Position numbers and translations under genes: made by a program
In this document: positions 1 through 2,173 of the stretch, one piece after another
Layout of the letters: each line of letters starts with the position of its first letter
Numbering within the stretch: position 1 is the first letter of the stretch
Notes under the pieces: model-generated
Seen by the model: the letters and a program-made list of their open reading frames with translations, nothing else
The model's database searches: none
What the model was told of the DNA's origin: nothing
Assembly (NCBI GenBank): GCA_022565875.1
Contig: JAIULY010000090.1
Span: 1 to 11,196 of the forward strand
Direction: 5' to 3'
Source: Schleiferiaceae bacterium
GTDB taxonomy: Bacteria; Bacteroidota; Bacteroidia; Flavobacteriales; Schleiferiaceae
DNA length: 11,196 nucleotides

Positions 1-667
1 AATCTAAGGCAATGATTCGGTCTAAGGCTAAATTCATAATGGGCTGTTTGGATGTTCGTTTGCCCAACAGAAACCAACGATTGTTGTACTCTTTGACGGC
101 AAAGGGGTGAAAGACAAACGTGCTGGCCGAACGCGCAGTAAACGATTGGTAGGTGATTTCTAAAACCACTTTTTTTATTATGGCTTGGTATATCGCATCT
201 AAAAAATGCAACCCTTTAAGCTGCTCGTTCTTGTCTAAATGGATGACTTGCCCCGACTGATGCTTTTCCGCATAAATCTTGTCTTCAAGCCGTTGTACTA
301 TGTCGGAGACGTCGCTGAATAGCGAAAAGTCTTTGAACTGTTTCAACATAGACACAGCGTCCGTAAGTGTGTTTATATCAGTCGCATTCAAAGGGGTGTC
401 GGTGATAGAGTAGTTGTCTTCACTGTAGCGATAATACTTGCGGTCATACACCTCTATGGGTGCGTTGTATCCCAATTTTTCGCTCCGCATCAATTGTATG
501 TCTAGTTGCAAGGTCCGTTTGCTAATGGCAATTTTCCGGCCTTCAAATTCGTATAGCGCATCTGAACAGGAAGCCATCAAATCTTCTAATGTCCAACGGC
601 GATACGGGTTTTGCAAACACTTATCTATTGTTTTGTAGCGGATTAAGGCGTTTTTATTCTGCGGCAT
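1..667 (-). CDS. WYL domain-containing HTH transcriptional regulator, C-terminal end cut by the window edge
   Basis: Reverse-complement translation from ATG (667..665) reads MPQNKNALIRYKTIDKCLQNPYRRWTLEDLMASCSDALYEFEGRKIAISKRTLQLDIQLMRSEKLGY... The 'ISKRTLQLDIQLM' segment is an N-terminal HTH like that of YafY/WYL regulators. Further on, 'VVLEITYQSF..RSASTFVFHPFAVKEYNNRWFLLG' matches the WYL-domain signature, with the W-[YF]-L-x-G motif at RWFLLG. The frame stays open to position 1, so the gene continues beyond the window. It is not in the supplied ORF track because it has no in-window stop. Confidence 0.65.
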   Translation of the reverse strand, partial: MPQNKNALIRYKTIDKCLQNPYRRWTLEDLMASCSDALYEFEGRKIAISKRTLQLDIQLMRSEKLGYNAPIEVYDRKYYRYSEDNYSITDTPLNATDINTLTDAVSMLKQFKDFSLFSDVSDIVQRLEDKIYAEKHQSGQVIHLDKNEQLKGLHFLDAIYQAIIKKVVLEITYQSFTARSASTFVFHPFAVKEYNNRWFLLGKRTSKQPIMNLALDRIIALD

Positions 668-705
668 AACCAGATGTTTTCGCAAAAAAACACTTTCTTT
701 TTTTA

Positions 706-726
706 CTGCGCAAATAGATTGCGTAG
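706..726. promoter_or_regulatory. Imperfect inverted repeat CTGCGCAA-N5-TTGCGTAG in the divergent WYL-regulator/rtcB intergenic region; candidate operator
   Basis: Arms 706-713 and 719-726 are reverse complements at 7 of 8 positions. The site lies between the two divergent start codons (667 and 764) in an AT-rich region with TTTG-containing elements typical of Bacteroidota promoters. Confidence 0.25.
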
Positions 727-763
727 TAGTTGTTAAATATTTGCACCAACAAATACAAACGGC

Positions 764-2173
764 ATGAAGTCAATTACAGCAAAGGATTTGCGAAAAATCG
801 GATGGGCGCAAAATGAAACGCTAGGAAAAGCGCTTGCGTGTATTCAAGGTGCTACAGAAGAAATCTCATTAGAAGATTTGAAACGTGTGTATCACCAGCC
901 TCAAGTCTACCTTTTAGACGCTTGCTATGGCGAAATAGCTGCCATGTTGCTAGCTTACCAAAACGAGCAAAAAGGCGACAGTATACCATTGGCACAAAAA
1001 GGTGTACCCTACACAACTTATGGAGCGGAACAAATTGAAGTAGGAGCGCGCAACCAGATGGACGTTGCCATGCGATTGCCCATCACCCAAGCGGGTGCAT
1101 TGATGCCGGACGCACATCAAGGGTATGGCTTGCCCATTGGTGGGGTGCTGGCTACAAATAATGCCGTCATTCCCTATGGTGTAGGAGTCGATATCGGTTG
1201 TCGTATGGCGCTTTCTGTTTTTGATATGCCCGGCTCGGCGTTCATGGGCTTACATGACCGGTTTAAGCGCGAGCTCATAGCGCATACCAAGTTTGGCGCA
1301 GGTCACGGTTTCGTGCGCAAACATCGCTCAGATCACGAAATTTTAAACCGAAAGGAGTTTGAGGAAAACACATTTATTAAGCAACTAAAAGACAAAGCGT
1401 GGAGTCAGTTGGGCACCTCGGGGGGCGGTAACCATTTTGTTGAGTTTGGCATACTTTCCTTCGCAGAAGCAGATGCCGAATGGAACCTTCCCAAAGGTGA
1501 GTATGTAGCGCTTCTTACGCATTCAGGTTCTCGTGGATTGGGCGCAACCATTGCTGGGCATTACACCAAACTGGCAAAAGCCGTATGCAAACTTCCGGAT
1601 GAAGCTAAAAACCTAGCCTACCTCGATTTGAATACTGACTTGGGTATGGAATATTGGACGGCAATGACTTTGGCCGGTGATTACGCCTCAGCTTGCCACG
1701 AAATTATACACCAAAAATTAACCAAGGCGCTTGGTTTGCAAACAATAGCGAAAGTTGAAAACCATCACAATTTTGCGTGGAAGGAAAAAATCAATGGCGC
1801 TTCTGTGATTGTCCATCGAAAAGGCGCTACTCCTGCTGGAAAAGGGGTGCTTGGTATAATTCCAGGCAGTATGACGGCACCAGGCTTTGTGGTAAGAGGA
1901 AAGGGTGAGGTTGCTGCTATTCACTCGGCTTCTCATGGAGCAGGCAGACAAATGAGCAGAACCCAAGCTAAAAAATCGGTTACCCAGAAACAACTGCAAG
2001 CCGTTTTGAAAGATCATGGCGTAACCTTGATTGGCGCCGGTTTAGATGAAGCGCCTTTCGCTTACAAAGACATCCATAAGGTAATGGCTGCGCAGAAAGC
2101 GTTGGTAGACATCGTTGCGACGTTTACGCCAAAAATGGTGCGAATGGCAGACGATGGCAGTCGAGAAGATTAA
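764..2173 (+). CDS. rtcB: RNA-splicing ligase RtcB (3'-phosphate/5'-hydroxyl RNA ligase)
   Basis: 469-aa ORF carrying the hallmark RtcB motifs MPDAHQGYG, GVGVDIGCRM, GGGNHF, HSGSRGLG, NHHNF, HRKGAT, IPGSM and SASHGAGR (the last contains the guanylylated active-site His). The catalytic core begins near residue 80, so the protein has a roughly 60-75 aa N-terminal extension compared with E. coli RtcB. Alternatively the true start is the internal Met at about nt 941. Confidence 0.9.
   Translation: MKSITAKDLRKIGWAQNETLGKALACIQGATEEISLEDLKRVYHQPQVYLLDACYGEIAAMLLAYQNEQKGDSIPLAQKGVPYTTYGAEQIEVGARNQMDVAMRLPITQAGALMPDAHQGYGLPIGGVLATNNAVIPYGVGVDIGCRMALSVFDMPGSAFMGLHDRFKRELIAHTKFGAGHGFVRKHRSDHEILNRKEFEENTFIKQLKDKAWSQLGTSGGGNHFVEFGILSFAEADAEWNLPKGEYVALLTHSGSRGLGATIAGHYTKLAKAVCKLPDEAKNLAYLDLNTDLGMEYWTAMTLAGDYASACHEIIHQKLTKALGLQTIAKVENHHNFAWKEKINGASVIVHRKGATPAGKGVLGIIPGSMTAPGFVVRGKGEVAAIHSASHGAGRQMSRTQAKKSVTQKQLQAVLKDHGVTLIGAGLDEAPFAYKDIHKVMAAQKALVDIVATFTPKMVRMADDGSRED

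Follow-up and report, generated by a model that had tools for sequence, protein, structure and literature searches.

Introduction

To our knowledge, the only RNA-repair switch that is understood is that of RtcR, a CARF-AAA+-HTH protein that works with sigma54 at enterobacterial rtcBA, and we know of no account of how RNA repair is switched outside the proteobacteria. We have analysed a locus of another kind in a stretch of 11,196 nucleotides from a Schleiferiaceae bacterium (GenBank assembly GCA_022565875.1, contig JAIULY010000090.1, positions 1 to 11,196), which we call the window. Here rtcB, the gene of the 3'-phosphate/5'-OH RNA ligase, is transcribed divergently from a gene whose product carries a WYL domain. 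The two systems are alike in that a dedicated regulator, presumed to answer to damaged RNA, is encoded divergently from rtcB. Unlike that system, the window has no RtcR gene, no CARF, AAA+ or sigma54 component and no rtcA; a one-component, sigmaA-dependent factor is predicted in their place, and the regulon consists of many modules with promoters of their own. The spacer between the two genes (668-763) holds no TGGCAC-N5-TTGC-like sigma54 site, and the count of such sites over the window equals that expected by chance. Within the window this bears out a first-pass annotation of the same DNA, which had proposed control by something other than RtcR and its CARF domain.

Three described kinds of regulator with a winged helix-turn-helix (wHTH), a WYL and a WCX domain can be compared with the one encoded here. 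DriD of Caulobacter crescentus is the activator of an SOS-independent DNA-damage regulon; its ligand is single-stranded DNA (ssDNA), and activation, which is demonstrated there, is a prediction here. It is the best match to our regulator both in a Foldseek search and in a profile search of the PDB, has a similar length and carries a helical linker between the wHTH and WYL domains, which for our regulator is predicted with low confidence. In DriD promoters, several of which are dispersed over the genome, the binding site covers a missing -35 element at a constant distance from the -10 element (PMC13004042), and the same holds at our locus for -33/-7 promoters with a predicted transcription start site (TSS). 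The two proteins are nevertheless only 16-21% identical, the regulon here concerns RNA repair and not DNA repair or cell division, and the host belongs to the Bacteroidota with their -33/-7 promoters. PafBC, the sigma-adaptation factor of mycobacteria and other actinobacteria, has the same three-domain fold and activates a large set of damage-response genes whose promoters have no -35 element. It is a heterodimer or a fusion protein that recognizes an asymmetric motif and responds to ssDNA, whereas the single gene and the symmetric palindrome of our locus point to a homodimer. CapW and BrxR, the repressors of the CBASS (cyclic-oligonucleotide-based antiphage signalling) and BREX (bacteriophage exclusion) systems, belong to the same domain family and are divergent from their cargo, with a palindromic operator in the shared promoter and autoregulation likely, as at our locus. 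Their structural similarity to the regulator is much weaker (E values of 1e-5 to 1e-4), however, their chains are of 266-290 residues with an RWHVR motif, and their cargo serves in phage defence.

WYL factors have been proposed, from comparative genomics, to sense RNAs with cyclic-phosphate ends and to regulate RNA repair (PMC9503650, PMC7824862). In the first of these sources the link is a comparative-genomics prediction for which Burroughs & Aravind (2016, NAR 44:8525) are cited. The literature that we searched contained no study of the WYL/RtcB system, its operator, its regulon or the RNA described below, in keeping with the earlier statement that the association is known from comparative genomics and experimentally essentially uncharacterized; the 2016 survey may list this clade. 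What appears to be new is a defined operator, an organization with one operator per module, a DriD-like promoter geometry in the Bacteroidota and a double tRNA-mimicking RNA associated with an SPFH/Band7 gene. The locus offers a concrete, testable alternative to RtcR, with one small regulator, a sharply defined 21-bp operator and a regulon that spans almost every known class of bacterial RNA-repair enzyme.

Results and discussion

The gene pair and its operator

Conservation was assessed in 80 related genome loci anchored on the regulator, and clustering of open reading frames (ORFs) took in 82 loci. The pairing of the WYL gene with rtcB is retained among these relatives: rtcB lies upstream, on the opposite strand and within 7 kb of the WYL gene in 46 of the 80 and is directly divergent from it in 13, eight with the orthologous RtcB and five with a distant RtcB paralogue. 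The other 34 have no rtcB within 7 kb. By clustering and Pfam matches, the genes that lie between the regulator and rtcB encode Ro60/TROVE with a vWA domain, RlaP nucleotidyltransferases, a T4-type RNA ligase, the PNKP kinase-phosphatase, Hen1, PrfH with a second RtcB, TatD, a DEDDh exonuclease, SPFH/Band7 proteins and a few unknowns. Since these are mostly RNA-repair genes, the regulator borders a variable island of RNA-repair modules.

The first-pass annotation had placed an 8-bp inverted repeat at 706-726 in the 96-bp spacer and had suggested it as the operator. The repeat is present but imperfect: CTGCGCAA (706-713) and TTGCGTAG (719-726) are complementary at seven of eight positions, or at eight of nine when extended to A705 and T727. 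In isolation the palindrome is weak, and 40 of 200 shuffles of the window gave at least one match at up to three mismatches. Its significance derives from conservation across related loci and not from the window alone. In 14 directly divergent and otherwise unalignable spacers it is the only conserved block apart from the flanking -7 boxes. We searched the surroundings of the WYL genes in the 80 genomes with the family motif [C/G]T[A/G]CGCAA-N5-TTGCG[C/T]AG, allowing at most one substitution, and found 154 sites in the 513 kb upstream and one in the 502 kb downstream; a mean of 0.62 sites is expected from block-shuffled sequence. At least one operator site is present in 76 of the 80 loci and some have up to five. 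The site at 705..727 shows no mismatch to the family consensus and is the only such site in the window.

The operator sites are intergenic. Their midpoints fall 45-50 bp before the start codon of rtcB, PNKP, Hen1, RNA ligase, the WYL gene, a gene termed c1 and several unknowns, 71-82 bp before the TROVE start and several hundred bases before genes that are preceded by structured RNAs. No DNA-repair gene with an operator was found among the 80 loci. Intergenic sites at a near-constant distance from the starts of many genes constitute the signature of a regulon, and the proposal of an operator is upheld in this wider sense. The palindrome is very probably the switch for the whole RNA-repair gene set, and it is highly likely that the WYL protein regulates rtcB through it.

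The product of rtcB itself matches the Pfam RtcB family with 274.7 bits over residues 103-459 (profile positions 6-423 of 426) and carries the HGAGR motif, which, from E. coli RtcB, we take to hold the histidine that accepts guanosine monophosphate (GMP). Matches to the RtcB-family models of NCBIfam score below the equivalog cut-offs. The N-terminal 103 residues have no Pfam match; an extension of about 100 residues (764-1072 of the window, + strand) is common to the flavobacterial orthologues, whose tblastn alignments begin at residue 4.

Promoter geometry

The 155 operator sites, oriented by their asymmetric A/T-rich centre, give the consensus TTTTTA-CTrCGCAAAATAATTGCGyAG-TAGTtTt.AAATCTTTG. 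A T lies at +24 from the operator centre in 100% of these sites and at +25 in 98%, followed by T/G and G/T at +26 and +27; about a quarter of the sites show a 1-nt slip in the register of the -7 box. From the near-invariant T at +24/+25 we derive a -7 box of the TAnnTTTG type at a rigid offset from the operator. In Flavobacterium this box occupies -12 to -5 (PMC9723704), which would place the TSS of rtcB near position 748, so that the operator would extend from about -42 to about -22. Scans for promoters of the sigma70 type are uninformative for Bacteroidota.

The -33/-7 spacer reportedly has its optimum at about 19 bp in promoter studies of F. johnsoniae. On the cargo side of the 155 sites the sole TTG is 14 bp from the -7 box and no TTG lies 17-21 bp upstream of it; the cargo promoters therefore have no properly spaced -33 element. 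In the reverse direction a TTTG within the operator half-site is followed, after 19-20 nt, by a TAAATTTG-like box, an arrangement that we take to be a canonical Bacteroidota promoter; with a spacer of 19 nt and TAAATTTG it is seen in 37 c1 promoters and 20 WYL promoters.

The gene c1, of 204 residues, lies directly upstream of the regulator and on the same strand in 56 of the 82 clustered loci (for example L043:6119-6733, the L numbers denoting individual loci); it is absent from the window. Its product carries a YHNLTHI motif and has no Pfam match. Standing behind the canonical promoter, c1 is likely to be co-transcribed with the regulator. In one locus c1 and the WYL gene are separated by a Flavo-1 RNA (RF01705, 61.2 bits; L013:6895-6976, + strand), and tandem repeats of the AAACTG type take the same position in L005, L027 and L031.

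The regulator

The gene divergent from rtcB runs off the edge of the window. Two Logan contigs from the same organism are identical to it over the region, and from one of them (L001, 100% identical) the complete regulator has 356 residues, the WCX domain and the C-terminus being encoded outside the window. The WYL domain claimed for this gene is found by Pfam in the minus-strand ORF (PF13280, 43.4 bits, E = 3.4e-11, residues 155-220, with the RWFLLG motif included) and by a PADLOC WYL model (94.9 bits). The full-length protein also contains a WCX domain (PF25583, 55.8 bits, residues 254-332).

The N-terminal HTH that had been claimed along with it finds no matching model among the Pfam and NCBIfam profiles, and for this reason we assign it from a structure model. 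The AlphaFold2 (AF2) model was built for a homologue, P0001, that is 83% identical to the fragment encoded in the window; its mean predicted local distance difference test score (pLDDT) is 65 and its predicted TM score (pTM) 0.36. In the model a wHTH is followed by three linker helices, then by the Sm-like beta-barrel of the WYL domain and finally by the WCX domain. Residues 1-81 form helices at 2-19, 27-42 and 50-61 and a beta-hairpin at 71-81, with pLDDT values of 61-82 over residues 1-60, and the linker helices span 95-112, 118-135 and 152-164. A Foldseek search of the PDB with this model returned exclusively wHTH-WYL-WCX factors as its top 32 matches, aligned over their full length, and in this way the HTH is recovered where the profiles had not detected it. 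The E values were 2e-12 for DriD, 2e-10 for PafBC, 2e-5 for CapW, 1e-4 for BrxR and 2e-4 for 6oaw, an entry listed as 'CRISPR Cas-related protein', and DriD and PafBC thus outscore CapW and BrxR by 5-8 orders of magnitude. The sequence profile search of the PDB matched DriD and PafC and did not match CapW or BrxR. We place moderate confidence in the N-terminal wHTH. As judged from its sequence and modelled fold, the gene product is a wHTH-WYL-WCX transcription factor.

Within the regulator family Ser175, Arg197, Lys203 and Arg217 are invariant or nearly so. More than 7,340 homologous proteins were found at E <= 1e-10; the best 120 are 62-75% identical and come mostly from Flavobacterium, other Flavobacteriales or metagenomes. 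The closest relatives are Schleiferiaceae/Cryomorphaceae-like, which, together with a protein in the window that bears a T9SS tail, places the host among the Flavobacteriales. Homologous regulators occur in named Flavobacterium species, among them F. johnsoniae and F. columnare, which are genetically tractable.

Mode of regulation

The domain architecture, the conserved linkage, and the conservation and geometry of the operator are observations. The explanation that in our opinion accommodates them best is a DriD-like, ligand-activated master regulator of an RNA-repair regulon, and as a whole we give it a probability of about 0.5. A dimeric wHTH-WYL-WCX factor would bind the 21-23-bp palindrome at 705-727, where the operator is predicted to overlap the -33 region of two back-to-back sigmaA promoters, its centre falling near -32 relative to rtcB and near -38 relative to the regulator gene. 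The factor would control rtcB and, most likely on the same transcript, the tRNA-like RNA and the SPFH gene that follow. What we read as the same cassette of operator and -7 box precedes every module of the islands in related flavobacteria (RtcB, Ro60/TROVE with Y-like RNAs, PNKP, Hen1, T4-type RNA ligase, RlaP and PrfH-RtcB2), which would make the factor the master regulator of the set. In the most likely mode, that of DriD, single-stranded nucleic acid generated by damage would bind to the WYL domain and license DNA binding; the bound dimer would then recruit RNA polymerase to the cargo promoters, in which no -33 element stands at the proper spacing. The most likely ligand would be fragments of RNA, tRNA halves for example, which might carry 2',3'-cyclic-phosphate or 5'-OH ends. 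At the regulator's own promoter the bound dimer would occlude the canonical -33 element, giving negative feedback.

With respect to the sign of regulation alone, we lean towards activation. A ligand-activated activator is favoured because DriD and PafBC, which are activators, are the nearer matches of the regulator in the fold search as well as in the profile search, because its 356 residues resemble the chains of DriD and PafB/C (317-330 residues) rather than those of CapW and BrxR, because it has RWFLLGK in place of the RWHVR of the repressor clade (PMC11662680) and because PADLOC matched it only with generic CRISPR-associated WYL models and a weak Cas3c model. Activation of the cargo promoters is favoured because the site covers the missing -33 element at a constant distance from the -7 box, as in DriD promoters, and this offset is rigid in about 155 sites.

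The strongest competitor, which we regard as possible though less probable, is a repressor of the CapW/BrxR type. In that case the ligand-free dimer would occupy the palindrome and shut off the two promoters, until binding of a ligand to the WYL domain took it off the DNA and so allowed rtcB and the remaining modules to be expressed. The operator does extend over the -33 regions on either side, the promoter that faces c1 or the WYL gene has a canonical form and would be masked, and CapW and BrxR act in just this way from an operator in the promoter that a divergent regulator and cargo share (PMC11662680). Moreover, WYL one-component factors are described as negative regulators in the papers of the Aravind group (PMC9503650). 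The kinship with DriD and PafBC, the chain length, the motif, the PADLOC matches and the form of the cargo promoters, all given above, speak against a repressor.

Several points nevertheless weigh against the activator that we prefer. A site over the -33 region is just as typical of repressors, a divergent regulator and cargo is the CapW/BrxR arrangement (PMC11662680), and the fixed spacing of operator and -7 box could be explained by the spread of a single promoter cassette under a repressor. The AF2 model is of moderate confidence and was made for a homologue; its pLDDT is mostly below 50 in the linker helices, the part that in activators of the DriD/PafBC type forms a three-helix bundle in contact with RNA polymerase. 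DNA binding, the sign of regulation, the ligand and co-transcription are each deduced, and the two grounds for co-transcription of rtcB, the RNA and Band7 are both absences, of a second operator and of a predicted terminator.

The geometry of the promoters permits direct comparison with DriD and PafBC, the structures of which have been solved.

The ligand

For the class of ligand, the odds between RNA and ssDNA are roughly even. The regulon is made up almost exclusively of enzymes that act on RNA ends, which argues for a signal derived from RNA. WYL domains can bind RNA, an example being the WYL1 protein associated with Cas13d. RNA with cyclic ends, as mentioned above, is the signal predicted from comparative genomics (PMC9503650). 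On the other side, nearly all of the wHTH-WYL-WCX ligands characterized in the literature covered are ssDNA, which DriD, PafBC and CapW bind in the WYL/WCX cleft (PMC11662680, PMC13004042), and CapW did not bind poly-U RNA (PMC11662680). An exception is a WYL factor of L. plantarum, which senses c-di-GMP (PMC11880434).

An alternative that follows from these precedents, and which we consider less likely than not, is that the regulator senses ssDNA arising from DNA damage or from phage or prophage replication, so that the RNA-repair island is the output of a response to DNA damage or infection; either mode of regulation would be compatible with it. The closest structural matches of the regulator, DriD and PafBC, are ssDNA sensors, and the Salmonella rsr-yrlBA-rtcBA operon is reportedly induced after DNA damage, indirectly through tRNA fragments. 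Against such a role speaks a regulon in which almost every gene acts on RNA ends and which, in the 80 loci, includes no DNA-repair gene with an operator. The locus bears on the question of whether any WYL domain reads RNA damage rather than ssDNA.

That the WYL factor regulates only itself (and c1) or an unrelated target, with rtcB under separate control, might be supposed from the relatives in which rtcB is not directly adjacent or is not found within 7 kb, but it is strongly disfavoured by the palindrome, which is at a fixed offset before rtcB in 34 promoters, internal and non-divergent ones included, stands before other RNA-repair genes and is essentially absent elsewhere.

A tRNA-like RNA and an SPFH/Band7 gene downstream of rtcB

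Part of the 550 bp that separate rtcB from the next gene is occupied by a structured RNA (2179-2480), in which a 5' domain is followed by two circularly permuted tRNA-like modules. Module 1 comprises, in order, an open anticodon-like stem, a 5-nt variable loop, a T arm, a loop-closed acceptor stem, U-A and a D arm. The nearest described family is that of YrlA and other bacterial Y RNAs (RF02553), which are bound by Ro60/Rsr; the Salmonella rsr-yrlBA-rtcBA operon holds Ro60 together with such tRNA-like Y RNAs. Shared features are the T arm, the loop-closed acceptor, the D arm, the open anticodon-like stem and the proximity to rtcB. Rfam gives partial matches to YrlA at 2308-2370 (37.5 bits, aligned by cmscan to model positions 23-85) and at 2377-2431 (25.8 bits), against a gathering score of 69, and no match at the gathering threshold was obtained in the window or in ten related loci. 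Unlike YrlA, moreover, the RNA has two tRNA-like modules, a distinct 5' domain with an invariant GUGUUUCUGUAUAGCAC hairpin and SPFH/Band7, not Ro60/TROVE, as its constant neighbour; the window contains no TROVE/Ro60 gene. The RNA is related to YrlA in design and stands outside that family on two counts, its score relative to the gathering threshold and the linkage to Ro60.

The fold has strong covariation support. In an alignment of 50 sequences the consensus contains 56 pairs, 46 of them with compensatory changes. Of the alignment cells, 95.5% are paired, compared with 40-44% when the partners are slid, and double changes amount to 524 cells, compared with about 100 in the slid controls; none of 500 shuffles reaches these values. 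All four tRNA-like helices (T arm, acceptor, D arm and anticodon-like stem) carry compensatory changes, and the element at 2179-2480 is a tRNA-mimicking RNA. The triplet at the anticodon position differs from one species to another, with GUU in the window and UUU, GUA, CAU and others elsewhere.

We used the 17-nt hairpin GTGTTTCTGTATAGCAC at 2197-2213 as a marker for this RNA. It is present upstream of Band7 in all eight genome loci in which ORF clustering found Band7, and in three more at the locus edge, with Band7 out of reach. A scan of metagenomes gave 120 loci with the marker, 78 of them with tRNA-like arms at the expected distance; 36 of the 120 are chance matches in unrelated contexts, and these 36 matched no relevant Rfam family. 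A Band7 homologue lies 546-837 nt downstream of the 5' motif, on the same strand, in 61 of the 62 metagenomic loci with enough sequence. The WYL operator is found no more than 800 nt upstream of the RNA, mostly at about 120 nt, in 48 of the 64 loci with upstream room. The marker was absent from viral contigs.

Where the module of RNA and Band7 follows rtcB in the window, it has no operator of its own, and the same is true of L003, the closest relative. There is no terminator-like site on the + strand between rtcB and Band7, and the hairpin at 3858-3889, between the convergent genes of Band7 and an M13 peptidase, is likely to be a bidirectional terminator that ends the unit. We therefore infer a single transcript of rtcB, the RNA and Band7. 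Pseudomonas aeruginosa, too, has been described as having an SPFH gene within an rtc locus (PMC13086221).

Three candidates within this region were set aside. ARAGORN calls a tRNA-Asn(GUU) at 2406-2480 (+ strand), where the Rfam tRNA model scores 29.2 and so only marginally passes its gathering threshold of 29. This stretch is the second module of the structured RNA and not a real tRNA, because its would-be 5' acceptor strand pairs upstream and this pairing covaries in the 50 sequences; the Rfam match covers model positions 8-63 only. Tandem tRNA genes can mimic YrlA (PMC4201824). We reject such mimicry here because the closed acceptor and open anticodon-like stems covary and because module 1 has no anticodon arm. 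Lastly, the arms of the 3858-3889 hairpin contain the operator half-sites CTGCGCAA/TTGCGCAG with a spacer of 4 and not 5 nt (3865-3884). We did not count this palindrome as an operator: the variant is seen in this organism only and forms the probable terminator hairpin.

Coupling of a tRNA-like RNA to an SPFH protein extends the idea of the Y RNA beyond Ro60, and the pair may point to how cells detect or buffer attack on tRNA. Should the proposals made here prove true, the variable anticodon-like loops (GUU, UUU) could make the RNA a decoy, a sensor or a scaffold for anticodon-nuclease damage and RtcB repair. We put forward as a tentative idea, the boldest and a rather improbable form of our proposal, that this is the first WYL factor with damaged RNA, not ssDNA, as its natural ligand. 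It would act in the manner of DriD to activate an RNA-repair regulon whose modules have been shuffled horizontally, and one output of that regulon would be a new ribonucleoprotein of double tRNA-mimic RNA and SPFH/Band7 instead of Ro60.

Features of the locus and of related islands

The coordinates are collected in Table 1.

Table 1. Features of the window and tRNA arrays of related islands (positions without a locus prefix refer to the window)
Feature	Position	Strand	Remarks
wHTH-WYL-WCX transcription factor gene, 5' part	667..2 (listed 1..667)	-	222 codons; ORF runs off window edge
Shared divergent promoter region, WYL gene/rtcB	668..763		96 bp
Predicted WYL-gene promoter	683..714	-	-33 TTTG 714..711 in operator half-site, 20-nt spacer, -7 box TTTTTTTG at 690..683
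Operator-like palindrome A-CTGCGCAA-ATAGA-TTGCGTAG-T	705..727		Predicted site of WYL regulator dimer
Predicted sigmaA -7 box of rtcB, AAATATTTG	735..743	+	T positions conserved in 155 sites
rtcB, 3'-phosphate/5'-OH RNA ligase	764..2173	+	469 residues; Pfam RtcB PF01139
Structured non-coding RNA, about 300 nt	2179..2480	+	5' domain and two circularly permuted tRNA-like modules; from covariation; 3' end approximate
RNA 5' domain	P1 2179-2188/2260-2270; P2 2197-2213; P3 2218-2256	+	P1 long closing stem; P2 invariant hairpin; P3 variable hairpin
RNA module 1	Anticodon-like stem 2306-2310/2368-2372; T arm 2316-2332; closed acceptor 2333-2349; D arm 2352-2366	+	
RNA module 2	T arm 2378-2394; closed acceptor 2395-2413	+	Followed by D arm and anticodon-like hairpin with GUU
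SPFH/Band7-family protein gene	2724..3818	+	364 residues; Pfam Band_7 93.1 bits
Hairpin between convergent Band7 and M13-peptidase genes	3858..3889		Perfect 14-bp stem
tRNA arrays in islands	L031:240-915; L062:4166-4670; L067:4167-4672; L027:2414-2835	Island strand	

Other tRNA-like elements, which ARAGORN does not call, occur on the island strand. Those of one type lie upstream of c8, a gene for an uncharacterized protein of 746 residues (for example L006:5571-5744, L015:5716-5887 and L026:5748-5922); this type includes a match to the tRNA model of about 116 nt with a long insertion. Those of another type lie between TROVE and rtcB (for example L004:3145-3505 and L013:4056-4398), as in the Salmonella rsr-yrlBA-rtcBA operon. 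No element of either type reaches the YrlA gathering score.

Some islands hold arrays of three to eight seemingly genuine tRNA genes (Phe, Leu, Gln, Tyr, Pro, Asp, Arg and Asn). Several of these tRNA types are classic targets of anticodon nucleases, and the arrays could be spare tRNAs.

Elsewhere in the window a putative endonuclease of the Uma2 family (6623-7351, - strand) matches the PADLOC candidate defence family PDC-S03 with 174.9 bits, and a protein with a tail of the type IX secretion system (T9SS) is also encoded.

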